Origin: an uncultured bacterium
GTDB taxonomy: Bacteria; Acidobacteriota; Aminicenantia; UBA2199
Assembly (NCBI GenBank): GCA_942492175.1
Contig: CALODR010000009.1
Span: forward strand, 353,850-417,849
Reading direction: 5' to 3'
DNA: 64,000 nt
In this document: positions 6,865 through 26,377 of the stretch, one piece after another
Layout of the letters: the number at the start of each line of letters is the position of its first letter
Position numbering within the stretch: the first letter of the stretch is position 1
The notes under the pieces: model-generated
Seen by the model: only the letters and a program-made list of their open reading frames with translations
What the model was told of the DNA's origin: nothing
Database searches by the model: none
Program-made: the position numbers and the translations under genes

Positions 6865-9168
6865 CTATTTTATAAGTTTAGGAAGGTTTATGTTCATTTT
6901 TTTAGGCATTCTGCTAAGATTGAAATCCACTCTTGTTTTGTTTGTCCCGGTTTTATAGTCCGAAAGTATAATTATTGTAAACGCATTGACCATAGTGGAT
7001 GTATTCATAGTGAAATTTACCAGGCCCCAAATGTTTTTGTTCTTCAGTGATCCGCTTTCTCTTCCCGCTTTGATCTCTGTATCATATTTGAACCCCATGC
7101 CCTTAAGTTCAGATATCAAATATTTGAATACTTCCAATTTCGGACTGTCATATTCCAGTAATGCATTACAGAGATTTGATTGTGGTGTACAATCATCACA
7201 TTTTATTACCCTTGGGTTTTTACCTTTTGGGATAATTGTTTTAAATGTTCCATTGAGCTCTCCTGATATGGCAGATGTGGTTTTGATAACATGAGGAGTT
7301 TCTGACAATAATCCTTTTCCACCGAGCAATTTAAAGAGGCTAAAATATTTTTTCTTTTTTGCTATATCTATGGCTGTATCTCCATTATTGTTCTTGGCGT
7401 TTTGTAAAGCCCCCATTTTTATCAATTTTTCCGCGAGTTGAGGCTGATCATATTCAATTGCTATCATAAGTGGTGTCCAGCCGAATTTATTGCCTAAATT
7501 TATATTAACGCCGGATTTTAATAAAATAGCTGCTATCTCAGGATGGTTATATCTGAGAGCAAGAAGCAGTGGAGTCCAGCCTTCAGCAGTCACATCGTCC
7601 AGGTTAAGTTTTTTCCTTTTTATTATTGATATTGCGGCTGCCGGCATATTGTATCTAACGGCCAGGTGGAGGGTTGACCATCCGTCCTTTGTGAATCCAT
7701 TAACGGTTGCACCTTTTTCTAACAGGAGTAATGCTGCATCAGGCTGATCATATCTTAAAGCTACCATAAGAGGGGTCCATCCATATCTTGTTACTTTGTC
7801 AAGCCCTTTGCCTTTCCTGATTATGATATCAGCAATTTCGGGGAACTTATATTCAAGTGCAAAATGGAGCGGAGTGTTCCCGTCTCTTTCAGTAGCGAGT
7901 GTATCAGCTCCGCTCTCAATGAGTTTCTTAGCACACTTTCCGGCACCGTTTCTCAATGCAAAAAGGAGCGGCGTCCATCCGTTTTTGTTGGAGGCGTTAA
8001 TGTCTTTATCTTTTTCTATCATCTTTTCGGCGAGTTTGTTTTTCCCATAACGGAGAGCATACATTAGGGGGGTCCAGTTCTCATTATCTTTGACATTTAT
8101 CTCAGCGCCCTTTCTATACAATGAATCAGCTAACTCCTCATTCCGGTAGCAGAGGGCCATCATCAGTGGTGTCCATTTATTATCTTTAGGTTTATTTATT
8201 TTACACCCTTTCTCAAGGAGCATATCCAATAATTCCATATCACAACCGTTCCGGAGGGCCATGAAGAGATTGTTCCATCCGCCGGAAATTTCTCCTGTAA
8301 CATCAATACCTTTATTTATTAAAAGTTTTGCCGGTTCTATCATATTATATCTTGTGGCAAACATCAGATGGTCCCATCCGCTTTTAGTTTTAATGGAGAT
8401 ATCGGGATCCATACTTATAAGAAATTTTGCAATCTCTTCATTTTTAAATTCCAGAGATGTCATCAATAATGTTTGACCGTTTTCCCATATTTTATTCAGG
8501 ATATCTCCTTTTTTTAGAAATTTTTCCAGAGATACCTTGTCTCCGTTTTCTACTGCTTTGAGTGCATTGTATTCGTTGCTGTATTGCCCCTTCGCAGAGG
8601 GTTGATATATGGGGATAAGAATTTTCCCTCTTGTTTTTTCGAGATAATCTCTCGGGCTGTTGCTGTTTATAAGACCTTTTAATACAGTATTGGAAGTGAA
8701 ATTAAGTTTTTTAAAATTTGTATCAATATGTATTTTATATGAATAATTTTCAAGACTTTCTTTAATAATAGTGATCTTGATATTGCCAAGATAGTTCAGG
8801 TCGGATTTGTTAACGTAGAATTTCTTGTCTATCTTATAATACTTTTTCCCGAAGAAGATATCTTCTATCTTGAACAGTCCGTCAACATTTTGTATCAGGA
8901 AATATTTCCCATTTCCGGCAGTGATCGTATCTGACTTCTTTTCCCCGTCTTTTCGTATTCTGATACTAATTTCCTCCCCCGGTCCGACAAGCTTTTTCTT
9001 CTTGAGAAAGGAGATACTTCCAAATGAGATAGAATTAAAATTTGAATTTTTAAATTTCCCGTTCTGTAATTCACTGACAAACGGGCCTTCATATTTTTTT
9101 ACTTCCGAGAATAGACCAATTGATAAAAATAGAGCAAAACATACAGAAATTGTTATTATTTTCTTCAA
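6865..9168 (-). CDS. secreted ankyrin-repeat protein (>=12 ANK repeats) with ~290-aa N-terminal domain of unknown function
   Basis: Repeated 33-aa units 'GWTPLMxALRYxxxxxAxxLLxKGAxxN'; N-terminal signal peptide 'MKKIITISVCFALFLSIGLFS'. Confidence 0.85.
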   Translation of the reverse strand: MKKIITISVCFALFLSIGLFSEVKKYEGPFVSELQNGKFKNSNFNSISFGSISFLKKKKLVGPGEEISIRIRKDGEKKSDTITAGNGKYFLIQNVDGLFKIEDIFFGKKYYKIDKKFYVNKSDLNYLGNIKITIIKESLENYSYKIHIDTNFKKLNFTSNTVLKGLINSNSPRDYLEKTRGKILIPIYQPSAKGQYSNEYNALKAVENGDKVSLEKFLKKGDILNKIWENGQTLLMTSLEFKNEEIAKFLISMDPDISIKTKSGWDHLMFATRYNMIEPAKLLINKGIDVTGEISGGWNNLFMALRNGCDMELLDMLLEKGCKINKPKDNKWTPLMMALCYRNEELADSLYRKGAEINVKDNENWTPLMYALRYGKNKLAEKMIEKDKDINASNKNGWTPLLFALRNGAGKCAKKLIESGADTLATERDGNTPLHFALEYKFPEIADIIIRKGKGLDKVTRYGWTPLMVALRYDQPDAALLLLEKGATVNGFTKDGWSTLHLAVRYNMPAAAISIIKRKKLNLDDVTAEGWTPLLLALRYNHPEIAAILLKSGVNINLGNKFGWTPLMIAIEYDQPQLAEKLIKMGALQNAKNNNGDTAIDIAKKKKYFSLFKLLGGKGLLSETPHVIKTTSAISGELNGTFKTIIPKGKNPRVIKCDDCTPQSNLCNALLEYDSPKLEVFKYLISELKGMGFKYDTEIKAGRESGSLKNKNIWGLVNFTMNTSTMVNAFTIIILSDYKTGTNKTRVDFNLSRMPKKMNINLPKLIK

Positions 9169-9354: not shown

Positions 9355-10530
9355 TTATTTCAGCAAAATCCCTTTCAGACCGACAATTACGGATGGTGAG
9401 GAAGTTTTAAGAACGCGAAAAACAACTTTCCCTTTCTCTCTTCCGGGTACGGAAGTTTCAAATTCTCTCTTCTCTCCTTTTTTAACATCTCTGAACAATA
9501 ACTGGTCGACCATATTGTCATTAACCAGTACCTGAAGAATGATGTAATCCGAGTTATCTTTATATTCGACCGTACCCTTGATCAGAAGCATTTCAGATCC
9601 TGAAAAGATCCCCTCTTTTCTGATGGGAATGTTTTTCCCGCCCAGCCCGGTTACCTTGTTAAGTGTTATCTCTGCTTTTGCAATTATTATTTTGATCTCA
9701 TTAATACTGCTCTCACCGGTTACTTTGTCGAAAGAATCAAAAGATCTGACTCTCCAGTAAGTCCACCTGTTTCTCTTAAGCCCGTCCCAGATCTCTTTTC
9801 CCGGGGTGAAAGTGAGGCCCCCTCTGACATCATTCCAGACAAGAGAAGAGCTGTTGTTTAGAAGATCAAAAAGTGAGTTGGAAAAAGCGATCTGGTATCT
9901 TGCCGCACCTCCTCTTGGGACTGCCCATGAGAATTCGGGTATCTCATCCTCTTTTGCTACAAATCCATCTGGGGGTGTTAAGGTCTCCATGCTCTTCTCA
10001 AATGGGAGCACGTAGTATCTCAGTGTCGGAAACACAAGTTCGGTAGCCGGCCTGGTAAGCCGGAACGAGACAGTGTGTAAACCCGGTTCAATAGTGGGAA
10101 GCGGGCTTGCCTTGTCCAGAGTAATTTCCTTAACTTCACCCTGGCTTGATAACTCATTTATAAGGCCGAATACCGATCCGTCATATAACCAGTGCCCTGT
10201 GATAACCCCGGTCCCCTTCATTTTTAATTTTAATACCGGTTTAAGCTGATCCGAATTTCTGGGGACGACCATATAATATTTCCCGTTATCGAACTTGAGC
10301 TCAGCCAGATCGAGAATAACCTTATCCGTCAGTCCGAAGACCTTAACCATGGTTTCGAATGATTTTGTACTTTCTCCGCCTTCATCAACAGCAATGATCT
10401 TAAAATCTCCTGTCTGAGTGTAAGTGTGAGATATGGTATGACCTCCGATTACAACTGTTCCGTCACCGAAGTTCCATAAAATGGTATCTCCATTAAAATT
10501 GTAAGCAGTAACGGTAACCGGTTCTCCTAT
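9355..10530. repeat. ~1.2 kb direct repeat copy 1 (3' part of PKD paralog A), near-identical to 11151-12326
   Basis: Encoded proteins are 100% identical over ~250 aa and >95% over the remainder. Shadow ORFs 9806-10015 and 11605-11814 encode identical 69-aa peptides. Confidence 0.85.
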
Positions 10531-11148
10531 ATTGACCTCGGCAGTCGAGATCTGTATGAACCTGTCGTCCGGTGAGACTGTTACTACTGTTGAAATGGTC
10601 TCGTGTTTGATGTCAAGTTCTCTTACATTTACAGTATAAGTCCCCGGTGTCTGATATCTGTGTGTCTGGATATGACCTCCGTTCAAAACAGAACCGTCAC
10701 CAAAGTTCCAATATATTGTGGGGTTAAGAAAATGAAGTGCCTGGAGATATACCAGCTGATCAACCTTGGGAGTTGAAGGTGTTGCCGTAACCGCTCTTCT
10801 CGGTGCAATAGTAATATTTTTTGTGACGTTATATGCAGTAAAAACAAATCCGCATGACGGGGTCCACATGGCAACACCATGGGTATACCTTATTGTATAT
10901 GTACCCGGTAGATCAAATGAGTGGCTCTGCCAGCCATGATCCAGATCATCCGGGTATATTATAGTTGTGCCGTCACCGAAATTCCAGGTGGATGTCCCTC
11001 TGGCCGAGTCATGACAACTCTTGTTGAAACCTATTTTGTCACCTACAAAATAAGGCCCGTTCCAGTTAACTACAATTTGTGCATTTAACGATTGCACTAA
11101 AACTAAAGAAAATAAACATATGAATGGTATCAGATATATCTTCTTCAT
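9355..11148 (-). CDS. secreted PKD-repeat protein, paralog A (3 PKD domains plus conserved C-terminal module)
   Basis: Signal peptide; repeated 'WNFGDGT' PKD signature; residues ~207-597 are near-identical to paralog B. Confidence 0.8.
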   Translation of the reverse strand: MKKIYLIPFICLFSLVLVQSLNAQIVVNWNGPYFVGDKIGFNKSCHDSARGTSTWNFGDGTTIIYPDDLDHGWQSHSFDLPGTYTIRYTHGVAMWTPSCGFVFTAYNVTKNITIAPRRAVTATPSTPKVDQLVYLQALHFLNPTIYWNFGDGSVLNGGHIQTHRYQTPGTYTVNVRELDIKHETISTVVTVSPDDRFIQISTAEVNIGEPVTVTAYNFNGDTILWNFGDGTVVIGGHTISHTYTQTGDFKIIAVDEGGESTKSFETMVKVFGLTDKVILDLAELKFDNGKYYMVVPRNSDQLKPVLKLKMKGTGVITGHWLYDGSVFGLINELSSQGEVKEITLDKASPLPTIEPGLHTVSFRLTRPATELVFPTLRYYVLPFEKSMETLTPPDGFVAKEDEIPEFSWAVPRGGAARYQIAFSNSLFDLLNNSSSLVWNDVRGGLTFTPGKEIWDGLKRNRWTYWRVRSFDSFDKVTGESSINEIKIIIAKAEITLNKVTGLGGKNIPIRKEGIFSGSEMLLIKGTVEYKDNSDYIILQVLVNDNMVDQLLFRDVKKGEKREFETSVPGREKGKVVFRVLKTSSPSVIVGLKGILLK

Positions 11149-11150
11149 TT

Positions 11151-12326
11151 TTATCTCCGTAGTATTAAACCCTTTATTCCTACTATAACTGAAGGTGAGG
11201 AGGTTTTAAGAACGCGAAAAACAACTTTCCCTTTCTCTCTTCCGGGTACGGAAGTTTCAAATTCCCTCTTCTCTCCTTTTTTAACATCTCTGAACAATAA
11301 CTGGTCGACCATATTGTCATTAACCAGTACCTGAAGAATGATGTAATCCGAGTTATCTTTATATTCGACCGTACCATTGACCAGGAGTATTTCGGATCCT
11401 GAAAAGATACCCTCTTTTCTAATCGGGATATTTTTCCCCTCCAGTCCGGTCACCTTGTTAATCGTTATCTCTGCTTTTGCAATGATGATCTTGATCTCAT
11501 TGATACCGCTCTCACCTGTTACTTTGTCGAAAGAATCAAAAGATCTGACTCTCCAGTAAGTCCACCTGTTTCTCTTAAGCCCGTCCCATATCGCTTTTCC
11601 GGGGGTGAAAGTGAGTCCCCCTCTGACATCATTCCAGACAAGAGAAGAGCTGTTGTTTAGGAGATCAAAAAGTGAGTTGGAAAAAGCGATCTGGTATCTT
11701 GCCGCACCTCCTCTTGGGACTGCCCATGAGAATTCGGGTATCTCATCCTCTTTTGCTACAAATCCATCTGGGGGTGTTAAGGTCTCCATGCTCTTCTCAA
11801 ATGGGAGCACGTAGTATCTCAGTGTCGGAAACACAAGTTCGGTAGCCGGCCTGGTAAGCCGGAACGAGACAGTGTGTAAACCCGGTTCAATAGTGGGAAG
11901 CGGGCTTGCCTTGTCCAGAGTAATTTCCTTAACTTCACCCTGGCTTGATAACTCATTTATAAGGCCGAATACCGATCCGTCATATAACCAGTGCCCTGTG
12001 ATAACCCCGGTCCCCTTCATTTTTAATTTTAATACCGGTTTAAGCTGATCCGAATTTCTGGGGACGACCATATAATATTTCCCGTTATCGAACTTGAGCT
12101 CAGCCAGATCGAGAATAACCTTATCCGTCAGTCCGAAGACCTTAACCATGGTTTCGAATGATTTTGTACTTTCTCCGCCTTCATCAACAGCAATGATCTT
12201 AAAATCTCCTGTCTGAGTGTAAGTGTGAGATATGGTATGACCTCCGATTACAACTGTTCCATCACCGAAGTTCCATAAAATGGTATCTCCATTAAAATTG
12301 AAAGCGGTGACTGTAACCGGGGCTCC
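11151..12326. repeat. ~1.2 kb direct repeat copy 2 (3' part of PKD paralog B)
   Basis: See copy 1. Confidence 0.85.
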
Positions 12327-12962
12327 GATCGGTGTCTCTGATGTTGAAATTTGAATGAACCTGTCATCGGGAGATATAGTTACTGTTGCGTATATGGTCT
12401 CATGTTTTACATCCAGTTCTCTTGCCGTAATTGTGTACACTCCGGTTGACTGATACCTGTGGGTTTGAGTAAGACTTCCATTAAGTACAGTTCCGTCCCC
12501 GAAGTCCCAATAAACTGTGGTTCCCGTAAAATTCAGGGCCTGGATGTAGACAAGCTGATCAACCTTCGCGTTGGAGGGATAAGCTGTGACAGCCCTTTTT
12601 GGGTCAATAGTAATTCTGTATATAACGGTAAATGCATTTCCTGACCAGCTTCCATCATGACATATGGGAGTTGAAGAGGCAACACCATGGGTATACCTCA
12701 CTACATATGTCCCCGGTAGTGAATATGAGTGATACTGCCAGCCGTGATCATTGTCATCCAGATATGTGTAGGATGTACCGTCACCGAAATCCCAGGTGGA
12801 TGTTCCCCTGCTGGAATCATGACAGATTTTATTGAATCCGATTGTATCACCAACGTAATAGGGATCACTTTTATTAACTACAATTCCGGTTGGGAAAGAC
12901 TGAGCTTGAATTGAAACAGTAGTAAATATAGCAACTAATATTAATAAGTATGTCTTTTTCAT
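11151..12962 (-). CDS. secreted PKD-repeat protein, paralog B (tandem duplicate of A)
   Basis: Signal peptide; 'WDFGDGT/WNFGDGT' PKD motifs. The stop lies 2 nt from the start of paralog A. Confidence 0.8.
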   Translation of the reverse strand: MKKTYLLILVAIFTTVSIQAQSFPTGIVVNKSDPYYVGDTIGFNKICHDSSRGTSTWDFGDGTSYTYLDDNDHGWQYHSYSLPGTYVVRYTHGVASSTPICHDGSWSGNAFTVIYRITIDPKRAVTAYPSNAKVDQLVYIQALNFTGTTVYWDFGDGTVLNGSLTQTHRYQSTGVYTITARELDVKHETIYATVTISPDDRFIQISTSETPIGAPVTVTAFNFNGDTILWNFGDGTVVIGGHTISHTYTQTGDFKIIAVDEGGESTKSFETMVKVFGLTDKVILDLAELKFDNGKYYMVVPRNSDQLKPVLKLKMKGTGVITGHWLYDGSVFGLINELSSQGEVKEITLDKASPLPTIEPGLHTVSFRLTRPATELVFPTLRYYVLPFEKSMETLTPPDGFVAKEDEIPEFSWAVPRGGAARYQIAFSNSLFDLLNNSSSLVWNDVRGGLTFTPGKAIWDGLKRNRWTYWRVRSFDSFDKVTGESGINEIKIIIAKAEITINKVTGLEGKNIPIRKEGIFSGSEILLVNGTVEYKDNSDYIILQVLVNDNMVDQLLFRDVKKGEKREFETSVPGREKGKVVFRVLKTSSPSVIVGIKGLILRR

Positions 12963-13003
12963 GTTTTATCTCCGTAGTATAAAGCCCTTTTCATCTCAGT
13001 CTT

Positions 13004-14908
13004 TTAGAAAGCTATGTCTGCTTTCAGGTAAACTGAAGTGGAATCATTCGTCATTCCACTATTCTCATCTTTTTTATATGTCCCTTTCAAAGAGATTGAT
13101 GGTGTGATCTTATTTTTGAATAGTTTAGCCATGAAAAAATTAAGGCTGACGTCTGCAGAGAAGGTTTTTGAATCCGAATAAACGCTTTCACTGCTGTAAT
13201 ATGATGAAAAAATGGAAAGTGTGAAGATGTCGGGGATGAACTTAAGTTCTGAACTCAGGGTAGCATTAAGCATTTTTGATGTGGTGTCATCCTGATTGTC
13301 GGTCTTTGTATATGATGCAGACGGGGAAAGGGTAAGAAATTTTCCGATCGAAAATGACATTGAAAGGTTTGCATTCAGGTTGGAAGTGAAATTTTCAGAT
13401 TCGATCTTTCCGATTCCGAGTGATATAGAGTTGCTTCCCGAATAGTACCTGAGGTTAGTACCATAAGAGTTAGTGTTCATAGCGGTACCAGAGCTCTGGA
13501 GGCCTGAAGACTCATCATAGTTCAGATTGTTCCTTCCTAAATTTGCACTGAGGCTGAAATGATTTCCAATTGTCCAGTTAATATCGGTCTTAATCTCTTT
13601 TGTCCTTTCCGTGTTCCATTCTGTACTATTCAGATAGTTTTTTTCATCCCGGTAATTGACATTCCAGGTTATTTTTGTCAGGTTCAGCCCAATTGCGGTG
13701 TTAAGCCCTTCTCTATCGTTCAGCATCATCTGGTTTGCAATAGAGTAATAATTCGTACCTATTTTTTTATAATTTCCGTTTGCAGAGATCTTTCCCTTGT
13801 AAAAATTAAATCCGGCCTGCCAGGCACTGTCTTTTTCTTTTGATATATCATCACTGGTCTCACCTTTGCCGAAATTACTCTGTGCATATTCACCTTTCAG
13901 CGTAAGTGCACTTTTCATGAGTTTAAGTTCACCCCAGATCGAAATAATGTCACCTTCCCTGACAGGATCATCATTCGAATATAAGGTTTTACTATCGGTC
14001 TTATCTTTACCTGTTATGAATGAGGTTTTTATTGAAAATATCTGCCCTGATTTAAATCCTGTCGCTGCACCGAAAAGGTTTGCATCAGGTATCGGTATCC
14101 CGAATCCCTCAAAACCTGTTTTTTGCTGAGAGTTTACTGAAAACAGGTTGAAGTACAATTTATTTCCGGTCATTTCATAGTTTAACCCTCTTCTACTGAG
14201 CCATGAAGTTGAAAAATCTGAATGATTTATCGAAACATCACCAGCTTCAAATTTATGATTGCCTTTTTTGAACCTGACAATCATATTGGAAAGATTTATG
14301 TGGCTTTCATCAGGCCCGATCTGATCCAGGTAATTAAATGTGGATTCAAAATCGAACTGATATTCGTTGTCATAAATATTCCTGTATAATCTTATATTCC
14401 CGTTGTTTGAAAATGCTTTGCCCGGATAATCAGAATTGTCATGCAGTTTGGTGGTTGAAGAGTATGAGGGGCTTACTTTTAAAAAGGGATTCTTTGCTTT
14501 GGGCGTTGCTCCCCCTGATTCTGTATTTAAAAAATAGATCTCAGGTGATTCTTTCTTTGTAAAATTTGTGATAGTGAAGACCGGTGATAGGGGATTTTCC
14601 TTTCTTCTGTCTTTTTCAAAGATAAAGTATTCAATGTTTTTCCCGTAGAGGTTCTCAAGAGGCAATCTGTAGTAGATCTCCCCGTTTGCACTGACCTCCA
14701 TTTTCCTTACCTGATAATGATTCAGTCCCTCAGTTTTGTAGTAAATATAAAAATCATCTCCCCGGCTGAGTGTTGAAACTTTAATAGTTATTGCTTTTTC
14801 ACCCTTCTCAATTATCGGGAGGTAGTTGGAAAAGCCAAAGGATTTGCTTTGAACCGTCAAACTTAATAATAAAATCAGGATTAAAACACAGATAGGTTTT
14901 ATTCTCAT
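13004..14908 (-). CDS. outer-membrane beta-barrel protein (634 aa), family unknown
   Basis: Signal peptide 'MRIKPICVLILILLLSLTVQS'; long Ser/Thr/Asn/Gly/Tyr-rich amphipathic strands; C-terminal '...YLKADIAF' terminal Phe. Confidence 0.55.
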   Translation of the reverse strand: MRIKPICVLILILLLSLTVQSKSFGFSNYLPIIEKGEKAITIKVSTLSRGDDFYIYYKTEGLNHYQVRKMEVSANGEIYYRLPLENLYGKNIEYFIFEKDRRKENPLSPVFTITNFTKKESPEIYFLNTESGGATPKAKNPFLKVSPSYSSTTKLHDNSDYPGKAFSNNGNIRLYRNIYDNEYQFDFESTFNYLDQIGPDESHINLSNMIVRFKKGNHKFEAGDVSINHSDFSTSWLSRRGLNYEMTGNKLYFNLFSVNSQQKTGFEGFGIPIPDANLFGAATGFKSGQIFSIKTSFITGKDKTDSKTLYSNDDPVREGDIISIWGELKLMKSALTLKGEYAQSNFGKGETSDDISKEKDSAWQAGFNFYKGKISANGNYKKIGTNYYSIANQMMLNDREGLNTAIGLNLTKITWNVNYRDEKNYLNSTEWNTERTKEIKTDINWTIGNHFSLSANLGRNNLNYDESSGLQSSGTAMNTNSYGTNLRYYSGSNSISLGIGKIESENFTSNLNANLSMSFSIGKFLTLSPSASYTKTDNQDDTTSKMLNATLSSELKFIPDIFTLSIFSSYYSSESVYSDSKTFSADVSLNFFMAKLFKNKITPSISLKGTYKKDENSGMTNDSTSVYLKADIAF

Positions 14909-14984: not shown

Positions 14985-17807
14985 TTACAGGATCTTAAAG
15001 AACAAGATATCAGAAACAGTTGATACGGATCCGGTTGCGTCAACTATTCTTACCTGCCAGTATATCCAGTCTCCAGATTTGTATTTTGCAGTTTCAAGGT
15101 CAAAAGATGTGTCTTCCCCTGTCTCTATCCAATTTATGCTATTGTCACTCTGGAGTTGGAATGGGATTTCGGATACGGCAATTTCGAACCTGTCCCCCTG
15201 CCTTTTCTTTTTCCATTTTAGTTTTATTATATCTTTACGTGTCAATTTTGATCCGGATAAAGGGGATATTGTTTTTATGGACCCGCTGTTGGTCACAAAA
15301 TATCTTAAAGTAGGGATCTTGCCCTCAAAATTATAATTTTCAAAATCTAAACTTAATGAATGAATTCCTGTTTCGAGTACAGGAAGTTTCGGGACTTCGC
15401 TGGCTTTTATGGTAATAAGGTTTCTTCCTGCCAGTAGTTTTGTGAATAAACCAAAAACCTTCCCGTCAAAAAGCCATTTACCGGTGATAATTCCTTTCCC
15501 GTTTATTTTCAGCTTTAACTGATAACCGGGGGAAAAGCTGTTAAGCGGAACGATCCTGTAGTATTTTCCATTGCTGAAAGTGAGCTCCAGAGCATTTATT
15601 CTGAAATCCTCCGTCTGCTCCCTGACCTTTACAGTTTTTGTGAACAATTTTTTTCCTTGGCCTTCATAGTCAACAGCTGTGATCTTATATGTACCTGTTT
15701 TGTTGAAAGTCTGTGTAATGGTTTTGGAGAGGATTTTGGGCGGGCTGCCGTCTCCCACATCCCATTTGACTGCATTACCATTAAAATTTTGTGCAGTCAG
15801 TTTAAGCGGTTCACCGATGAGGACGGTCTCTTCCCCGAGAATAAGTGATCTTGTGTCAGGTTGAACATTTATTGTTTTTACAACCGGCGGATAAAGTCCG
15901 GACCTGTCAGTTAAAATAATTTGTTTTACTCCGGGAGTGTTAAAGACTATTTCGCCCGGATTTTGTCCGGATACGGTTTTCCCCCCCTGAAATTTCCACT
16001 CATAATTCCCGCCTTGTGAGTTTTTCAACTGCATTGAAAACGGAACTCCGGCAATAATAGTTTTTCCTAATTCCAGCACACGGGAATCCCTGACAACATT
16101 TATGCTGAGTTCTATTTCCCTGGATCCTTTCCCGTCAAAATCTATAGCGGTTATTCTATAATTTCCGGGCATTTTATATTTATGAGTAATTCTTTTTGAG
16201 CCTCTCTGGTCCGAGCCGTCTCCAAAGATCCATCTTACTCTGTTGTCAGCGAAATTTCTTGCTTCAAATTCTGTTTCCGTGTCTGCGATAATAGTTCCCT
16301 TGCGGGATACTATTTCCCTGTTATCCCTTAAAACATTTATCCTCACCTTCACAGGAATTTTTGAAGTGCCGTCAAAATCAAATACCTGAACAACAAAATT
16401 TCCCGGTCTCATATACGTATAATTTATTTGATGCGAGCCATTCCTGATTGTTCCGTCTCCCATATCCCATTTAACTGAAGGAGAATTCAAATTGCGTCCT
16501 ATAATTTTTAATTCAGTTTTTTCAAAAATTTGACTATTTTCAACTTTGAGTTCTCTGTTATCGTTTATTGTAATAAATTCTCTTACGGGCGACTGCCCCT
16601 GTATATCAGCAATAACCTCAACTCTTCCAGGATCCTTGAATTTATGCTGGATCTCCAGTGGGGAATTGTTTGCGGGGTTTTCGTTTCCTATCTTCCAGGT
16701 TACAGTATTTGCAGAACTATTCTGAAGCTTAATCATTACCTGCTGCCCGACAAGTGCTGCCGGCGGCTGAATCAGGACCTTTCTTTTATCCTGATTTACA
16801 GATACCATCACCGTTACAAATGGAGAAGATGATCCGGCTTCCCTTGCTTTAATATTGAAGTTTCCCATGTTTGTAAAAGTGTGTTTTTCTGTCTGTCCGC
16901 CGGTTTTTTTATTGTTTTGGCCGAAATCCCACTCAATTGATCCTGAAGTAAAATTGACTGCATTAAATGTAACTTCTTCATAAAGTGAGGGGTTTTGCGG
17001 AGATATATTTATAGATCTGTTGTCAGGTGAAACGTTTACGGTTTCTTCAATAAAGCTGTTCGGACCTATTGCCATGTCTGTTACCCTGACCTTAAAGTTA
17101 CCCTGAGATGAAAATATATGAGTCATTGATTGTCCGCCGTTCTGTATTGCTCCGTCCCCGAAATCCCATTTAAGGTTTGCGGAAAAATTTACCGCCTGGA
17201 AAGCTATTTCCCTCCCTGCCATCGGAGATGAGGGTTGATAATTTACAGAACGGTTATCTGGTGCTATTGATATTGTGCAGGTTATAACTGAAGATGAATT
17301 TCCAGCGTAATCTTTTACTTTTATTGTATAATTACCTGGATTTGAATAAGTATGCTCCCTGCTCTGCTGACCGTTATTTACTGTTCCGTCTCCGAAATCC
17401 CAGTTCAGAGTATTTTCAACAAAATAATTTGTGTTAAATAAAACAGGATTTCCGGCCATAAAAGAGCTACCACTAGGTTCAACAGTTCTCCTTTCTGTAA
17501 CATTAATTATTGATGTCAACAGAGTCGGTTGGCCGCCTGCAGGGGTTTTTTCACAAGTTACTTCATAATTTCCCGGTTCTTTATAAATATGGTTTGCTTG
17601 AGATTGGGCCCCCTCAACAGGTGGAGTTCCGTCCCCGAAATTCCATTTGTAGTTAAATTGAGATGAAGGAGGTCCCCCTCCCTGAATTCCAAAAGTCACC
17701 TGTGTACCCGGGAACACCTGGTTAGGTTGGTTGTGGATGTTCTCACTATTTAATTGGTTGAATAAAAGCAGGAATACTAACGATACAAAAATGAGGTTTT
17801 TTTTCAT
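14985..17807 (-). CDS. large secreted PKD-repeat protein C (~8 PKD domains plus the C-terminal module shared with A and B)
   Basis: Many 'WDFGDGT/WNFGDG' motifs. The start is probably the internal ATG at 17807 (MKKNLIFVSLVFLLLF) preceded by GGAG, not 17858. C-terminal ~210 aa are homologous to A/B ('LTFSNGKYYRIVP' vs 'LKFDNGKYYMVVP'; 'GKWLFDGKVFGL' vs 'GHWLYDGSVFGL'; 'PTLRYFV' vs 'PTLRYYV'). Confidence 0.8.
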   Translation of the reverse strand: MKKNLIFVSLVFLLLFNQLNSENIHNQPNQVFPGTQVTFGIQGGGPPSSQFNYKWNFGDGTPPVEGAQSQANHIYKEPGNYEVTCEKTPAGGQPTLLTSIINVTERRTVEPSGSSFMAGNPVLFNTNYFVENTLNWDFGDGTVNNGQQSREHTYSNPGNYTIKVKDYAGNSSSVITCTISIAPDNRSVNYQPSSPMAGREIAFQAVNFSANLKWDFGDGAIQNGGQSMTHIFSSQGNFKVRVTDMAIGPNSFIEETVNVSPDNRSINISPQNPSLYEEVTFNAVNFTSGSIEWDFGQNNKKTGGQTEKHTFTNMGNFNIKAREAGSSSPFVTVMVSVNQDKRKVLIQPPAALVGQQVMIKLQNSSANTVTWKIGNENPANNSPLEIQHKFKDPGRVEVIADIQGQSPVREFITINDNRELKVENSQIFEKTELKIIGRNLNSPSVKWDMGDGTIRNGSHQINYTYMRPGNFVVQVFDFDGTSKIPVKVRINVLRDNREIVSRKGTIIADTETEFEARNFADNRVRWIFGDGSDQRGSKRITHKYKMPGNYRITAIDFDGKGSREIELSINVVRDSRVLELGKTIIAGVPFSMQLKNSQGGNYEWKFQGGKTVSGQNPGEIVFNTPGVKQIILTDRSGLYPPVVKTINVQPDTRSLILGEETVLIGEPLKLTAQNFNGNAVKWDVGDGSPPKILSKTITQTFNKTGTYKITAVDYEGQGKKLFTKTVKVREQTEDFRINALELTFSNGKYYRIVPLNSFSPGYQLKLKINGKGIITGKWLFDGKVFGLFTKLLAGRNLITIKASEVPKLPVLETGIHSLSLDFENYNFEGKIPTLRYFVTNSGSIKTISPLSGSKLTRKDIIKLKWKKKRQGDRFEIAVSEIPFQLQSDNSINWIETGEDTSFDLETAKYKSGDWIYWQVRIVDATGSVSTVSDILFFKIL

Positions 17808-17854
17808 TGTAAAATTCTCCTTAAAGTTTATATAAGAAAATTGTTGAATATATC

Positions 17855-20641
17855 TCATTTTTTTATAAAAAACTTATAAAGGTTAAAATTTGCCCATATC
17901 ATGGGATGAGAAAATGACAACTTTCTTCCGTTTCCCAGTTCAATGATTCTTTTTCTGAAAGATATTTTAACATTCCTTAATATAGTAGCGAGGTCATCCG
18001 CCCGCCCTTTTTCATTCTTGAGCTCTGTATAGAAAGGGACAATGATTTCTGAACTAAACTCATTGACAGGCCATAAACTCGCTATCATCGATTCTGCTCC
18101 GGAATTATAAAGTGTTGCTGTAATACCGCTTATCAACTGTTCCCCCATGAGATGATTTTCCAGGCTTCCGCAGGTGCTTAAAAAGATCAGGTCGCAATTC
18201 AATCTCAGTCTGGAAATATCGGAAACAAAATATAATGGATCGTTTTCCTTCCGGGCGGAGAACAGAAACATTGAATACCATGGGTATTTCCTGTTACTAA
18301 CAAAATGTGTTGCCAGATGAATTATTCTTGAAACTGTTGCAGTTTTATTGAAATTTTCCTTTGTGAATTCTTTCCCGGTATAAAATCTCCCCCTCTTATC
18401 TCCCCAGATATTTTTTATTTTTCTGATCTCTTCCTTTGATGAAGGGAGTAGGGTGAAAATAGAGTTACCCTTTTCAGAAAAATCAGAAAGCCATTTGTTC
18501 TTAGGGTCTATTACGGGAAATCCGAAGGCACTTATATCATATTTTTTCCTTCCTTTTTTTTTGTTATTTTTAAGGTGGAAAATGGAGAACAGGTATTCGA
18601 TGGAATATCTGTCAATAAGGAATTGAGTGTTCTCATATTCAGAAAAGATCACATTTTTTATTCTATAACTTCTCTTTTTTTTTGTTATTAAAGCCTCAAA
18701 CGGGATCTTGAAAAGGGCATCGTCAGGAATAATTATGAGCTTTTCCTTATCTTTATGAAACTCCAGAACATCATGAAGAAGGATATTATACAATTCAGCT
18801 GATTTCTCCTGGTCATATTTGATCCGCAGGAAGTCCACTTCGTTATTTTCATATCTTTGAATTGGGGATAATAGGGATCCTATAAGATTTTTTATATATT
18901 TGCTCCCCTTTTCTAGTTTTTTATATCCGGCGGATTTGTGATCGATAACAAAAGCATACGTATTATCTTCGAGCACGATGAACCTAACCACAAGAGTATC
19001 CCTGTCAAGTATATTCCTGATTTTTGTCAGATCCAGTTCAGAGATCAGAAATCTTTTGTATCTTTTCGGGAACTCAAGAATAAGGTCTTCAAGCTCTATA
19101 AGTTCTGTTTTCAGTGAATCTACCATTTTTTTATAAGATATGATCCTGGATTCTTTAATATGTCCTTTTAAAATTTTCTCTTCAGCTGCCCTGACCTCAT
19201 TTTCGACTCTGGTTTTTTCTTTTTCTATACTTTGTATGCGGCGGTCCCCGTCAGATATTCTCCTGAACATATAAGGATTCTTAACCTCTCCTGAGTAAAA
19301 AGCCATTCTGAGATATTTCAGTTCATTTGTCTTATCAAACATTCTGAAGTTAAACCTTGCTATCCTTGAATAAATGAAGGTGATCTCCTCCCTGTATGGA
19401 TAATGTCTGAGGTGATTCAATTCAGAAAAAAAATAGTTAAGGCTCCTGAATGTTTTTTCATAATATTCACCTGCAACTTCCGGTTTCCCGATTTTTTCAT
19501 TCAGCATACCTCTGAGAAAATAGTAGAAAAAATATCCGCGGTAGAACGGAGTGTAAATCTTACTCATTTTATTCAGATAAGCCATCGCCTCTTCCGGGTT
19601 GTTATAATGAATAGCCCTTTTTATAAACTCGTAGAGAACCGGCATAAGGTGTTCGTAAGATTCATTGTTGATGCCGAAATCCGCAGTGTTCTTCAGAATA
19701 GTTAGTCCGCTGATATCCTGATCATTATAAAAAAATAATTTAGATCTCATAAAATAGGCATTTAGAATAAGTTCCGGGAAATTTTTTTTCTCTCCAATTG
19801 CGATGCTTCTTCTGTTGTATTGTTCAGCTTTGTTGTAATTCGCTTCAGACATGAAAACTTCTGTATAGATATTAAATATCCACATTTTCAGATGTTCATT
19901 CCTGAATTTTTCAGCATAATTCAGTGATCTTCCGAGAAATTTAAGAGCAAGCTTGTTTTTCCCCAGATGGAAAAAAGCTTTTGCTATCCTGTTATAAATA
20001 TACCCGCTGCTTGAAGCTTCCATTTTTTCTGAATATTTTATCGCTTCAAAAAAAAACTGCAGTGATCTCAGAAAATTGTTTTCATGAAGGTGATAATCTC
20101 CGAGGGTAATAAATAATTGCTTCAGTGAGTCATTGTCTTTATATTTCTTTCTTAATTCTGCCTGGTTCTCAAGATATAATATCTCCCTTTTGATGTCACC
20201 GTTTCTCCTGTGAAATTCATGCAGTTTTATAAGTGATTCGAGTCTATCCCTGTCATTTCCGGAGTTTGCCAGTGCTTTCTTTAGATAATTCTCATTGTTT
20301 TTATCTGATATTTTTGCCAATTGAAGGTATATATAGTAATAAACTTTTTTGAATTTTTTTTTTCTCAAAATCTTTTTAAAAAAATCAGATGTTTTCTGAA
20401 CGTTTTTCAATATTTTTGAATTCCGGCCTACCATAAGGAGTTTGTGTTTTAAAATTTCGACACTTTGATCAGGTTCGAATTCTGAGATTTCAACCATAAG
20501 TTTCTCCTGATCTACTTCTGTAAATTTTTTTGTACTTAATTGTGCAGGACAAATTAAAATCAAGGAAAACATGAAGAAGAGGAGAGGGGGAATATATCTC
20601 ATTTCATATAAAAGTTTAATTAATAAGAAAAAAAAATTCAA
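17855..20641 (-). CDS. secreted TPR-repeat / CHAT-domain (clan CD, caspase-like) peptidase
   Basis: N-terminal hydrophobic signal, TPR-like helical repeats (residues ~100-420), coiled coil, C-terminal CHAT with the His ('IIHLATHF') and Cys ('IFLSTCGSLE') dyad regions. Confidence 0.8.
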   Translation of the reverse strand: MNFFFLLIKLLYEMRYIPPLLFFMFSLILICPAQLSTKKFTEVDQEKLMVEISEFEPDQSVEILKHKLLMVGRNSKILKNVQKTSDFFKKILRKKKFKKVYYYIYLQLAKISDKNNENYLKKALANSGNDRDRLESLIKLHEFHRRNGDIKREILYLENQAELRKKYKDNDSLKQLFITLGDYHLHENNFLRSLQFFFEAIKYSEKMEASSSGYIYNRIAKAFFHLGKNKLALKFLGRSLNYAEKFRNEHLKMWIFNIYTEVFMSEANYNKAEQYNRRSIAIGEKKNFPELILNAYFMRSKLFFYNDQDISGLTILKNTADFGINNESYEHLMPVLYEFIKRAIHYNNPEEAMAYLNKMSKIYTPFYRGYFFYYFLRGMLNEKIGKPEVAGEYYEKTFRSLNYFFSELNHLRHYPYREEITFIYSRIARFNFRMFDKTNELKYLRMAFYSGEVKNPYMFRRISDGDRRIQSIEKEKTRVENEVRAAEEKILKGHIKESRIISYKKMVDSLKTELIELEDLILEFPKRYKRFLISELDLTKIRNILDRDTLVVRFIVLEDNTYAFVIDHKSAGYKKLEKGSKYIKNLIGSLLSPIQRYENNEVDFLRIKYDQEKSAELYNILLHDVLEFHKDKEKLIIIPDDALFKIPFEALITKKKRSYRIKNVIFSEYENTQFLIDRYSIEYLFSIFHLKNNKKKGRKKYDISAFGFPVIDPKNKWLSDFSEKGNSIFTLLPSSKEEIRKIKNIWGDKRGRFYTGKEFTKENFNKTATVSRIIHLATHFVSNRKYPWYSMFLFSARKENDPLYFVSDISRLRLNCDLIFLSTCGSLENHLMGEQLISGITATLYNSGAESMIASLWPVNEFSSEIIVPFYTELKNEKGRADDLATILRNVKISFRKRIIELGNGRKLSFSHPMIWANFNLYKFFIKK

Positions 20642-20701: not shown

Positions 20702-21262
20702 ATGAAAGAGAGCCATACAATTATCAATCTACTCAAGTCAAATGACTTGCCAGCCGAAACCATGCTTGTCAAAAAATTTAATTCAAGACTATTTACATAC
20801 TTCCGCTCCAGGATAAAAGGTGAGGATAATTATGAGGATCTTGTCCAGGAGGTATTTGTATCGTTTTTTAATGCTGTCAAAAAAGATAAAATACACAGCG
20901 ATGATTTTATCGCTCCTTTTATATTCGGTATTGCCAAAAGAGTTGTATACAATTACTTTTATAAGAAAAAAAAAGGAGAAAATATAAAAAAGAAAGCGGA
21001 AAATGAACACAATCCCTTTGTTGATTTTTCCGGAGAGCAGAACCTTTGGAATGAGAGGATGATCAATATCATAAATGAACATATAAAAAATTTGAAAGAT
21101 ATTGACAGGGTAATCCTGAAAGAATTTTTTTTTAACGATAACACAATCAGCGAAATATCCGTATTAACAAACAGGTCGAAGCATTATGTTAGTGTGAGAA
21201 AAGAAAGAGCAATAAAAAAAATAAAAAGTGAGATATTGAATGCAGAAGGTGTATTTAAGTAA
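20702..21262 (+). CDS. ECF-type RNA polymerase sigma factor (sigma-70 family regions 2 and 4)
   Basis: 'DLVQEVFVSFF' region 2.x-like and C-terminal HTH 'ISEISVLTNRSKHYVSVRKERAIKKIK'; 186 aa. Confidence 0.8.
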   Translation: MKESHTIINLLKSNDLPAETMLVKKFNSRLFTYFRSRIKGEDNYEDLVQEVFVSFFNAVKKDKIHSDDFIAPFIFGIAKRVVYNYFYKKKKGENIKKKAENEHNPFVDFSGEQNLWNERMINIINEHIKNLKDIDRVILKEFFFNDNTISEISVLTNRSKHYVSVRKERAIKKIKSEILNAEGVFK

Positions 21263-21273
21263 TAGAGGAAAAG

Positions 21274-21963
21274 ATGAAGTGCAAAGAATTTGAGTCTCTC
21301 ATAGGAAATTATCTTGAAGGGACAATAGAGGACAATAAAAGGGAAATATTTGAAGAGCATTATTTTGTTTGCGATGAATGTTATGCTTCATTGGTTTTAA
21401 TTGAGAACCTTCGTGAAAAAAATGTTAGGATAGTACCGGGAAAGCAAAGAAATTACTCGTTCACCTTCAGGCCGGCACTATTCTTCGCTTCATTGATCCT
21501 GGTAGTATTTACATCTCTCTTTGTTACAGATTTTAACAACAGAAAAGAAAAATTATTGGATATCTCGGATTTTTCTGCCCCCCTTTACGTGAAAGGAGAG
21601 AACAGAGGTGATGATTTTTCGGATATGTTCCATGAAGCTATGGATAATTATCAGAATAGTAACTATAAAAAAGCTTATATCATAATAGCATCTATAGAAA
21701 ACGGGAATCCGAAGACATGGTTTTTCAGGGGAATTCTTGCATTGCTTAACGGAAAAAATAAGGATGCACTCATACATTTTGATAAAATAATAGTTGAAAT
21801 GTCTCCATCTTACTATGACGAAGCCATATACTATCGGGGGATCTGCTACTTGAGACTGAACCGGAAACATGATGCAGTAAAGCAATTTAAAATGCTTGAG
21901 TCTATGTTCAGCCCTCTCCGTCAGAAAGCTGCTGAAATGGTAAAAAGAATCTTAAGCGTCTGA
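21274..21963 (+). CDS. anti-sigma factor (zf-HC2 type) with single TM and C-terminal TPR-like domain
   Basis: N-terminal 'CKEF...EEHYFVCDECY' putative zinc finger; TM 'PALFFASLILVVFTSLFV'; starts 12 nt downstream of the ECF sigma gene. Confidence 0.65.
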   Translation: MKCKEFESLIGNYLEGTIEDNKREIFEEHYFVCDECYASLVLIENLREKNVRIVPGKQRNYSFTFRPALFFASLILVVFTSLFVTDFNNRKEKLLDISDFSAPLYVKGENRGDDFSDMFHEAMDNYQNSNYKKAYIIIASIENGNPKTWFFRGILALLNGKNKDALIHFDKIIVEMSPSYYDEAIYYRGICYLRLNRKHDAVKQFKMLESMFSPLRQKAAEMVKRILSV

Positions 21964-23944: not shown

Positions 23945-26377
23945 TTAATTGCTTTCACGGATTAAATTATCAAGACGCTTTTGCTGTGCAGGTCTCATGT
24001 TATTGTAGAATCTTTTTTTACATCTGTTGAACAGTTCAAAAGCTTTCTCTCTGTTGCCGGATCTGAGGTATACAATACCGAGATTAAAATAGACTTCAAT
24101 TTGGCCCGGGTCAATCTTCAGGGCTTTCTCTAAGTCTTTAATGGCTTCTCCTGTGTTTTTCAAAAATATTTGAATTGTACCTCTTCCTGAAAATGACTCT
24201 GCTAAAAGAGGATTTATGGAGATAGCTTTAGTGAAACTATCGTAGGCTTCGGTGAGCAGGGAGGGTTCCCTCTTCTGCATGAATATCATGAGCTTTGATA
24301 TTCCTAACTTGTTTAATGCATCGCTGTTTCTGGGGTCTTTTTTAAGTGCCTCGGTGAAATATTTAAGAGATTCTCCCTGTCTTCCGGTTTTAGACAGTAT
24401 GGTTCCATATGAGATATAAGGCTGTGGTTCATCCGGATGGAGCGAGATAAGTTGTTTCATTAATTCCAATCCCTTTTCCGGTGAGCCGGTATTGAGAAGC
24501 TGCATTGATATATCTGATAGAAATTCTATGTTGTCTTTATTGCTCCTGAATTGAATATCTCCAGACAATTTTTCAAGTATCTCTACTGCTTCTGTTTTGC
24601 GACCCATTTTTCTCAAGACCCGGGCTATACTCCTTTTTATTCCGAAATTCATAGGTTCTATAACTTCCGCTTTTCGGTATTCCTTTAGTGCACTCACATA
24701 ATCTTTTTTCATATTATAAATTTTCCCAAGCATTATTATTGCCTGGGTGCTGTTCTTGTATTTTTTCAATATGTTTCTACTTACTCTCTCTGCATCGCTT
24801 AATCGTCCTGATACAAAATAGGAGGTTGCCAGAAGGTCTGAGAAAGCAATGCTGTCGGGGAAATCTCTGACAGCCATCTCACGATATTTCAACAGATTTT
24901 TTTCATCTTCTTTGCTTCTGTAAAGGGCATCAAAAATTTCATAAACATGGATTGTGTCAATTCTGTTTTTTGAATAAAATATTTTTTTTAGATTCCTTTC
25001 TGCGGTAGACAACTTCCCCTCTGATACATCCGTTCTTATTGACCTTAATTTATTCAGATAGTCGACTCCGGTTTTAGGATCTATTTGTTTATCAGATCTT
25101 TTAAATGAGGATATATAGCCGAGTGATGCGAGATGGTCTCGGTCCTGCTTGCTCATTTCCCTTTTATTTGAAGAGGTGATGCCTGAGCTGCCGATATAAA
25201 AATCACTCAGTTTTCTGTCAAGATCTTTGGCGATATCCCTGTTCGAATTGAATATATTTGTCGATTCGCCGGGATCTGATTTAAGATTGTAAAGCTCCGG
25301 TTTTGGGAGTGATATATATTTGAATTCACGGCTGATGATTCCGGTAAGAGGGGCCCAGCCCATATGTTCATATGCATAGAGACTCTCAAAATAGAGGTCT
25401 CTCTGATCTCTATTTCCTCCTTTTGCAGAAGAGAGGAGGATAGAGCCTTTTTCCGTACCTGATCGATTTTCTGACATATCGGATATTGCCTGATAAATAT
25501 CAGTAAGTTTAACCCTGCTTTGGACCCGTTTCCCCGGCTTGATCCCCGGACAGTTCCAGATTATCAGAGGTACTCTTAATGTAACATCATAGCAGAATAT
25601 TCCGTGGCTGAACTCCCCGTGTTCCCCTTTATCCTCCCCGTGATCACCGACAATTACTATGATGGTGTTTTTCAGCAGCTTTCTCTGTTTCAGTAAATCT
25701 ACAATCTTACCAATGTATTGGTCCATATAAGCAATTTCGCCGAGGTAGGGGTCTTTCTCAAATTTAATTCTATATTCTCCCGGGGGGGAGTACGGTGTGT
25801 GTGGGTCATAAAAATGGACCCATCCGAAAAACTTTCTTTTCCCGGCCCTGTTCAGAAGAATTTTGAATTTATTAAAAACATTCTCTGCGGGAATTTGAGA
25901 AGATTGGGTTACATTAGCTTCACCGACATTAAGGGAGTCATCATAAATATCAAAACCTCTGGCAAGTCCGAATTTGGAAGCCAGAACGTAGGAGGATATA
26001 ACTGCAAAAGTGAAAAAGTTTTTTTCCTTTAAAAGTTCAGCAATGGTTTTGTGTTGATTTCCGAGGGAATACCATCCATTATTTCTGACCTTTAATACAA
26101 AGGGGTGTTTTCCCGTGAGGATGGATGAGTGTGCGGGGAGTGTCAGCGGGATATTTGAATAACAATTTTCAAAAACAACTCCTCCATCTCCCAATTTGTT
26201 AATATTGGGAGTGAAATTCAGGTTGCTGTTGTAACATCCCAAATGATCTGCTCTGGTAGTATCGAGTGTTATCAGGAGGATGTTCTTTTGTGCATTCTCT
26301 GACGGATGGGAGAATGATGGGATCATTATCAGAATAATTAATATAAAAAATAGTGATTTTTTTGCTATAAGTGCCAT
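23945..26377 (-). CDS. sulfatase-like (alkaline phosphatase superfamily) domain fused to C-terminal TPR repeats; secreted
   Basis: 'LLITLDTTRADHLGCYN' metal-binding motif, 'NIPLTLPAHSSILTG' (no CxPxR formylglycine motif), then ~8 TPR repeats; signal peptide. Confidence 0.75.
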   Translation of the reverse strand: MALIAKKSLFFILIILIMIPSFSHPSENAQKNILLITLDTTRADHLGCYNSNLNFTPNINKLGDGGVVFENCYSNIPLTLPAHSSILTGKHPFVLKVRNNGWYSLGNQHKTIAELLKEKNFFTFAVISSYVLASKFGLARGFDIYDDSLNVGEANVTQSSQIPAENVFNKFKILLNRAGKRKFFGWVHFYDPHTPYSPPGEYRIKFEKDPYLGEIAYMDQYIGKIVDLLKQRKLLKNTIIVIVGDHGEDKGEHGEFSHGIFCYDVTLRVPLIIWNCPGIKPGKRVQSRVKLTDIYQAISDMSENRSGTEKGSILLSSAKGGNRDQRDLYFESLYAYEHMGWAPLTGIISREFKYISLPKPELYNLKSDPGESTNIFNSNRDIAKDLDRKLSDFYIGSSGITSSNKREMSKQDRDHLASLGYISSFKRSDKQIDPKTGVDYLNKLRSIRTDVSEGKLSTAERNLKKIFYSKNRIDTIHVYEIFDALYRSKEDEKNLLKYREMAVRDFPDSIAFSDLLATSYFVSGRLSDAERVSRNILKKYKNSTQAIIMLGKIYNMKKDYVSALKEYRKAEVIEPMNFGIKRSIARVLRKMGRKTEAVEILEKLSGDIQFRSNKDNIEFLSDISMQLLNTGSPEKGLELMKQLISLHPDEPQPYISYGTILSKTGRQGESLKYFTEALKKDPRNSDALNKLGISKLMIFMQKREPSLLTEAYDSFTKAISINPLLAESFSGRGTIQIFLKNTGEAIKDLEKALKIDPGQIEVYFNLGIVYLRSGNREKAFELFNRCKKRFYNNMRPAQQKRLDNLIRESN

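Follow-up and report, generated by a model that had tools for sequence, protein, structure and literature searches.

A tandem pair of PKD-domain genes in uncultured Aminicenantia, probably homogenised over its 3' two-thirds by recurrent gene conversion, retains two N-terminal types

The stretch of DNA studied here, called the window in the following, comprises 64,000 nucleotides (nt) from an uncultured bacterium of the lineage Acidobacteriota; Aminicenantia; UBA2199 (assembly GCA_942492175.1, contig CALODR010000009.1, positions 353,850 to 417,849 of the forward strand). On its minus strand it carries two adjacent genes for secreted PKD-domain proteins: gene B (11151-12962), an open reading frame (ORF) of 603 amino acids (aa) for a PKD/immunoglobulin (Ig)-like protein with a B-type N-terminus and a CHDGSW insertion in its first PKD domain (PKD1), and its paralog gene A (9355-11148), an ORF of 597 aa with an A-type N-terminus. 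We propose, with a probability of about 80%, that A and B are old tandem paralogs which recurrent interlocus gene conversion has homogenised from the third PKD domain (PKD3) to the C-terminus, while the two N-terminal types persist. Both genes are full-length, each with its own start codon, signal peptide and ribosome-binding site, and both products belong to the PKD proteins, since they match the families PF00801 and PF18911 well over the gathering threshold (PF00801: 67.2 bits for A and 69.1 bits for B at a cutoff of 23.5, with two to three matched stretches each).

A preliminary description of the window had reported tandem PKD paralogs with a near-identical 3' block and a diverged 5' region, and had suggested a pairwise alignment of 9355-11148 with 11151-12962. 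In this alignment divergence was zoned and not uniform, giving a three-zone mosaic. Columns 1-668 of the global DNA alignment show 55-75% identity and several indels, columns 669-1307 (639 nt) contain one mismatch, columns 1308-1800 range from 82 to 100% identity per 60-nt window, and the final ~20 nt are diverged and unrelated. The first of these zones, with ~65-70% nucleotide identity over the first ~670 nt, is the unconverted 5' zone (A 10502-11148, B 12301-12962; these and the following zones lie on the minus strand), which in A codes for the signal peptide, PKD1, PKD2 and the start of PKD3. Next comes the most recent conversion tract (A 9863-10501, B 11662-12300), which codes for most of PKD3 and the next ~2 beta-sandwich domains. 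It holds the longest exact match between the genes, 599 nt (A 9863-10461 = B 11662-12260), and its one mismatch falls in the 40 nt up to position 10501. Further 3' lies an older, patchy homogenised zone (A 9372-9862, B 11171-11661) with ~93% identity, in which nearly all differences are synonymous. When the 263 mismatch positions were shuffled in 2000 trials, the identical run had a mean of 38 nt and a maximum of 82 nt, compared to the 599 nt observed.

The paralogs and their mosaic are therefore real, and the figures given earlier are essentially right. The ~250 identical residues correspond to a perfect run of 235 aa (A217-451/B222-456), the >95% identity towards the C-terminus to 97.1% protein identity over the C-terminal 375 residues, and the ~60% at the N-terminus to 64.4% over 222 aligned residues. 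The near-identical block of 1.2 kb is also present, as ~1.13 kb with 96.6% DNA identity and 38 mismatches, but it is not uniform and consists of a near-identical core of ~640 nt and an older, patchy tail of ~490 nt.

Silent sites date the three zones differently. According to Nei-Gojobori estimates for A versus B, synonymous divergence (dS) is 1.58 and thus saturated in the 5' zone, with a ratio of nonsynonymous divergence (dN) to dS of 0.15; it is 0.014 in the core, where dN/dS is not meaningful, and 0.30 in the 3' tail, with a dN/dS of 0.07. Within the tail, a patch at codons 484-531 has a dS of 0.77 and a dN/dS of 0.05. In no zone does dN/dS exceed 0.2. Since the 5' zone shows saturated dS and low dN/dS, a recent duplication with fast N-terminal change is ruled out; such a history leads one to expect low dS and high dN/dS in this zone, and the opposite was found. 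We are dealing with an old gene pair that has gone through more than one re-synchronisation of its 3' two-thirds. Homogenisation is of at least three ages, represented by a very recent tract of at least 640 nt, the older patchy 3' tail and the unconverted 5' zone. The abrupt breakpoints and the uneven silent-site divergence are those of interlocus gene conversion. Another tandem pair of the window, coding for proteins of the type I phosphodiesterase/nucleotide pyrophosphatase family (57831-59921 and 59918-61897, plus strand, with a 4-nt overlap), provides an internal contrast: its products share 34% aa identity and are uniformly diverged, without any homogenised block.

The closest database proteins come from metagenome-assembled genomes (MAGs) of Candidatus Aminicenantes. 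A genome scan yielded at least 15 loci and a metagenome scan with protein A eight. One genome among the matches listed in the genome scan, MAG GCA_029938635.1 (locus L002), shares the operon with the window, including two tandem genes of 603 aa (P0124, here G2_B) and 595 aa (P0004, here G2_A); the genes of the window are named W_A and W_B in this comparison. The G2 pair shares 1,355 nt of exact identity (L002 8103-9457 = 9941-11295), and this block starts at codon 151, whereas that of the window pair starts at codon 226, one PKD domain further 3'. Between W and G2 the homogenised blocks have only ~70% DNA identity. The flanking housekeeping proteins of both genomes are 58-85% identical, so that the two organisms are distant.

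Trees of the N-terminal and C-terminal segments are incongruent. The N-terminal DNA tree placed W_A with G2_A (96% bootstrap), and the N-terminal protein tree contained an A-type clade of W_A, G2_A and a fragment from L028 (91%) as well as a B-type clade of W_B, G2_B and P0002 (98%), to which the CHDGSW insertion in PKD1 is common. The C-terminal trees grouped the genes by genome (W_A with W_B and G2_A with G2_B, 100% each), the W pair standing beside L019, L004 and L021 (95-96%) and the G2 pair beside P0002 and P0007 (98-100%); these separate, well-supported branches include single-copy relatives. C-terminal paralogs are closest within a genome, while the N-terminal segment shows orthology, and each N-terminal type is kept across genomes at genus-level distances. 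Since the paralogs are grouped C-terminally by genome and N-terminally by type, we conclude on concerted evolution, independently in two lineages; its recurrence is seen in the separate tracts with different breakpoints in the window and the G2 lineage. Zone-wise dS, incongruent segment trees (91-100%) and a second genome with another breakpoint all support the earlier proposal that gene conversion homogenises the constant part of the genes.

A dS of 0.30 in the 3' zone (0.77 in the patch) beside a core dS of ~0 is impossible from one recent duplication. This observation argues against a history in which, after a recent tandem duplication, one copy had its 5' third exchanged for a foreign A-type cassette through homologous recombination with related Aminicenantes DNA, the identical block then being young duplicated sequence and not converted sequence. 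Some features would suit such an import: N-terminal types track neither the species tree nor a fixed position (the L028 gene in first position is A-type, not B-type, and in L018 a B-type gene lies amid rearranged neighbours), most of the relatives listed carry one copy only, and crossovers could take place at the conserved leader and PKD motifs. However, two such imports would be needed, one in W and one in G2, both yielding homologous B-to-A junction elements. Also, a recent donor is not in sight, since the A-type 5' zone nearest to W_A among those known has only ~77% DNA identity to it. We therefore regard the import of a cassette as improbable.

Both 5' breakpoints are located 6-9 codons 5' of a WNFGDGT-coding motif, in PKD3 of the window pair and in PKD2 of the G2 pair, and this motif is the most conserved DNA within the repeats. 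RecA-dependent recombination and the anti-recombination activity of mismatch repair form the basis of our mechanistic reading. Recombination between direct repeats 1.8 kb apart would copy the sequence of one gene into the other without exchange, and repeated copying would keep the region from PKD3 to the C-terminus nearly identical in A and B. The 5' third with signal peptide, PKD1 and PKD2 (65-70% identity, indels) would be too diverged for tract invasion and would therefore persist as types A and B, both under purifying selection. Tracts would start and end only where local identity is high enough, the indel-rich 5' zone acting as a self-reinforcing barrier. The same array could change its copy number by unequal crossing-over inside the identical block.

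The junction between the two genes is unusually informative. Only 2 nt separate the stop codon of B from the ATG of A, and the diverged 3' tail of B (11149-11178, minus strand; ...KGLILRR*) contains a GGAG ribosome-binding site 6 nt before the ATG of A. Because of this gap and this site, A and B are probably co-transcribed and translationally coupled. The end of homogenisation ~20 nt before the gene ends would be due to the same arrangement, since the diverged tail of B holds the ribosome-binding site of A. A 28-nt element, AAAGGG(C/T)TT(T/A)AT(A/G)CTA(C/A)GGAGATAAAA, is found directly upstream of the ATG in W_A, W_B and G2_A and can be aligned to the regular 3' end of the gene. Neither G2_B nor the single genes of other genomes, with their short TAGGAG leaders, are preceded by it. 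The leader upstream of B (12963-13003, minus strand; AAAGGGCTTTATACTACGGAGATAAAAC) appears as a vestigial gene 3' end with a ribosome-binding site, and 25 of the 28 nt of its element are the same as in the 3' tail of B and in the B-to-A spacer of the second genome. We infer from these alignments that the 28-nt element is a vestigial gene end and its copy at 12963-13003 the scar of a lost array member. The spacer of the second genome (L002 9474-9523) likewise shows a vestigial copy of the gene 3' end, followed by GGAG. Furthermore, the leader of B reads as a mini-ORF of 11 codons (MKRALYYGDKT*), with its stop overlapping the ATG of B, and a similar mini-ORF of 18 codons precedes the single gene in L019; both are probably scars of lost array members.

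Since the B-to-A junction element is homologous in both genomes, the two pairs probably derive from a single tandem arrangement in their ancestor. Separate duplications in the two genomes are excluded by this homologous element together with the common CHDGSW insertion of the B-type and the A-type clade.

Copy number at the locus differs between public assemblies. Contig L001 (JGI 3300021514, Ga0190293_1000010), from nearly the same strain as L002, has flanks 99.7-99.97% identical to those of L002, lacks exactly one unit of 1,862 nt and carries a single hybrid gene made of the 5' end of B and the 3' end of A (L001 10001-11812 versus L002 7662-11311). Such a product is expected both from assembly collapse and from unequal crossing-over within the identical block, and either may lie behind the difference. 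The risk of assembly collapse, pointed out in the preliminary description, has thereby found an actual case, L001 being L002 minus one repeat unit. Contigs of several relatives begin or end at residues ~169-205, between PKD2 and PKD3 (L028 9030-9536, L023 5-1231, P0016, P0017, P0113), and these ends of short-read contigs fit repeat-induced breaks without proving them.

It is nevertheless very improbable that the tandem or its perfect identity was made in silico, from a MAG mixing strains with alternative N-termini. A strain bubble would not make the unique B-to-A junction, with the diverged tail of B carrying the ribosome-binding site of A, and between the two copies there are 38 differences in the 3' block and saturated silent sites in the 5' zone. 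An artefact would find its grounds in the metagenome-assembled origin of the lineage, in the difficulty that identical repeats of 0.6-1.4 kb pose for short reads, in L001 with its one-unit difference from another assembly of the locus, and in the short-read contigs of several relatives that break at residues 169-205. Against it stands, in addition, an independent MAG of the same architecture with another junction and another breakpoint.

Several points weigh against gene conversion between ancient paralogs as we propose it. Only two genomes with the pair, the window's included, were found among the matches listed, and none of the eight loci of the metagenome scan had a new tandem pair or came from the population of the window. 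The relatives in between (L004, L019, L006, L007, L009) are single-copy, so that an ancient duplication needs several losses or collapsed assemblies. W_B and G2_B alone were grouped at just 54-56%; the wider B-type clade with P0002 reached 98%. Consensus polishing could have made the core look more exactly identical than it is, and neither the contig index nor the metagenome scan yielded the window's own population from another assembly. Exact look-ups of the proteins A, B and P0001 in the contig index gave no match, and the one NCBI contig is the only recorded source of the window's own proteins. Finally, the roles in docking and as distal tip that we discuss below for the two parts of the proteins are based on gene context and predicted structures only.

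Structure prediction points to Sec-exported, all-beta proteins built like beads on a string, with three PKD and ~4 further Ig-like domains in A and B. The AlphaFold (AF2) model of B, based on an alignment of 81 sequences, reached a predicted local distance difference test (pLDDT) of 90.8 and shows a signal helix, three PKD domains (~27-120, 124-197 and 202-276) and ~4 more beta-sandwich domains up to residue 602. A fold search with this model returned only generic chains of Ig-like domains, and the family profile matches the PKD domains of the ColH collagenase in the PDB. The mature proteins have two cysteines each, both in PKD1 and invariant in the family, which suggests a disulfide bond and fits an extracytoplasmic location. 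PKD1 (A ~45-99, window ~10850-11015; B ~47-103, window ~12650-12825) contains an invariant C-H-D motif besides the second invariant Cys, and the B-type insertion creates a second CHD (TPxCHDGSW). This set of CHD and Cys residues could form a disulfide or a metal/ligand site that sets the two types apart.

A and B are the last two genes of an envelope operon that is conserved in loci of Aminicenantes and Acidobacteriota. Its first gene (17855-20641; the operon lies on the minus strand) codes for a TPR-CHAT protein of about 915-928 aa with an N-terminal hydrophobic signal, which matches Pfam CHAT (4e-36) and TPR_12, is caspase-like and is syntenic in related loci. It is followed by the gene for a 957-aa multi-PKD protein (14985-17858), the C-terminal part of which is 31% identical to residues ~138-498 of A and B, and by that for a 634-aa predicted outer-membrane protein (13004-14908) with a signal peptide, a small N-terminal beta domain, a 26-strand barrel and a C-terminal Phe. 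The latter is syntenic in all related loci, with 41-92% identity across Aminicenantes and Acidobacteriota. Divergently from the operon, on the plus strand, lie the genes for a sigma factor of the extracytoplasmic function (ECF) type (20702-21262; Pfam Sigma70_r2/r4) and for a zf-HC2/TPR anti-sigma factor (21274-21963; Pfam zf-HC2 and TPR), and this pair is kept beside the operon in L001, L004 and L028. A literature search for CHAT with ECF and outer membrane gave no description of an association of TPR-CHAT with an ECF sigma/anti-sigma pair, and one for Aminicenantes with PKD gave nothing relevant. NCBIfam and PADLOC returned nothing specific for the operon proteins. Rfam and tRNA scans of the window were empty, and a promoter/terminator scan around the operon gave the same counts as shuffled sequence.

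The AF2 model of the 634-aa barrel has a pLDDT of 80.7. In Foldseek its best match was MtrB (template modelling (TM) score 0.49), followed by the FimD/PapC ushers (TM 0.32-0.38), SlpA and LptD. With MtrB of MtrCAB and with FimD/PapC the protein shares, in its predicted form, a 26-strand barrel and a small N-terminal periplasmic beta domain, and its operon partners are Ig-like. Unlike these, it has modest TM-scores and no Pfam or NCBIfam hit. An assignment to the chaperone-usher systems is opposed by the lack of an usher signature, of plug and C-terminal domains in the model and of a chaperone among the annotated neighbours. For a conduit of the MtrB/PioB type, the 26 strands and the best fold hit would fit, but there is no Pfam hit, and no operon protein contains a CxxCH haem motif.

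As a working model, we consider A and B to be outer-membrane-associated Ig-like proteins. Their constant C-terminal module may dock to shared partners, the 26-strand barrel and/or the TPR-CHAT protein, and PKD1-2 may form the distal, type-specific end. It is possible, if unlikely, that the whole operon, with its one or two PKD proteins of ~600 aa, represents an undescribed outer-membrane display or export apparatus for Ig-like proteins, with the C-terminal module as common dock, the N-terminal types as alternative tips and conversion keeping both compatible.

Two further genes were noted in the neighbourhood. Directly downstream of A, a 767-aa protein with a signal-like N-terminus and ~12 ankyrin repeats is encoded (6865-9168, minus strand); it is found at this position only in some relatives (L007, L009, L018) and matches the PADLOC candidate family PDC-M72A (E 7e-59), probably via its ankyrin repeats. 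On the other side, the gene at 23945-26377 (minus strand) codes for an 810-aa sulfatase fused to a long TPR region, and its sulfatase part shows 40% identity to a stand-alone ORF of 366 aa ~24 kb off (related coordinates 48864-49661 and 49834-50934).

The mosaic identity had led the preliminary description to think of variable surface proteins and antigenic variation. In such a system, shuffled N-terminal cassettes would vary an exposed antigen or phage receptor. The proteins are predicted to be secreted and Ig-like and are encoded beside an outer-membrane barrel, N-terminal dN is ~1.5-2 times core dN in comparisons between genomes, and the N-terminal types are patchily spread among relatives. 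However, with a dN/dS of 0.10-0.20 the N-terminal zone is under purifying selection and neither hypervariable nor diversifying, and there are just two old and stable types, each conserved in distant genomes. A cassette system with one expression locus and silent, truncated donors is not what the locus offers: it has two full-length genes and, within the 64 kb, no silent or truncated cassettes or further copies save the distantly related 957-aa gene. The annotated neighbours include no recombinase, invertase or reverse transcriptase, and the operon proteins gave no PADLOC hits. Moreover, the recombination observed homogenises the constant part and does not diversify the variable one. Programmed surface variation is therefore the least probable of the explanations considered, and we abandon this part of the first description.

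This distinguishes A and B from the classical antigenic variation systems. In Neisseria pilE/pilS, Borrelia vlsE and Anaplasma msp2, a single expression site is supplied by numerous silent partial cassettes, and conversion acts on the variable region. Non-reciprocal recombination between related surface-protein gene sequences is shared with these systems, but A and B are two complete genes in which conversion affects the constant region and purifying selection acts on the variable one. For babA/babB and other Hop paralogs of Helicobacter pylori, interlocus conversion is documented; it swaps a functional middle region and changes the adhesion phenotype. As in babA/babB, A and B would be outer-surface paralogs with near-identical terminal segments and a divergent segment that specifies function. 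The Bab loci, however, are dispersed and not tandem, and fold and biological context differ.

The closest analogue is Leptospira ligA/ligB, in evolutionary behaviour and not in family membership. These tandem genes for Ig-like surface proteins share an identical block from -266 to +1890, promoter included, which stops inside the seventh Ig-like domain and was explained by gene conversion, with the tandem arrangement as a favouring factor (PMC7821625). In both cases, tandem paralogs code for secreted strings of Ig-like domains, and a block of near-identity ends abruptly inside such a domain. In contrast to lig, where the identical block is 5', it comprises the 3' two-thirds here, and A and B are probably co-transcribed. 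Lig proteins are composed of Big_2 domains (PF02368), whereas A and B consist of PKD domains and unclassified beta-sandwiches, and the Pfam scan of A and B gave PKD families only. In addition, Lig proteins are host-binding virulence factors, while the genes described here come from uncultured environmental Aminicenantes without a known host.

An example of concerted evolution of duplicated bacterial genes is tufA/tufB. In prokaryotes, recurrent concerted evolution is documented and was catalogued by Wang & Chen (2018), but it is called uncommon (PMC6053082). A and B resemble such cases in that paralogs within a genome are closer than orthologs between genomes, which recurs in separate lineages via RecA-type recombination (PMC6053082). 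Unlike these cases, A and B are homogenised in part only; the 5' third escapes, and two ancient types result in a stable mosaic.

The mechanism is ordinary, since gene conversion is well known, and no new one is revealed, but the gene family is uncharacterised. As an example of partial concerted evolution from an uncultured phylum the locus is clean and well controlled: the same N-terminal types are retained in two lineages, each of which homogenises the rest, with breakpoints at equivalent positions of successive PKD domains. Since public assemblies of the locus differ by one repeat unit, copy number and N-terminal type in short-read MAGs are not to be trusted at this site. Beyond the gene pair itself, the finding points to a widespread and uncharacterised envelope operon of the Aminicenantes and Acidobacteriota.

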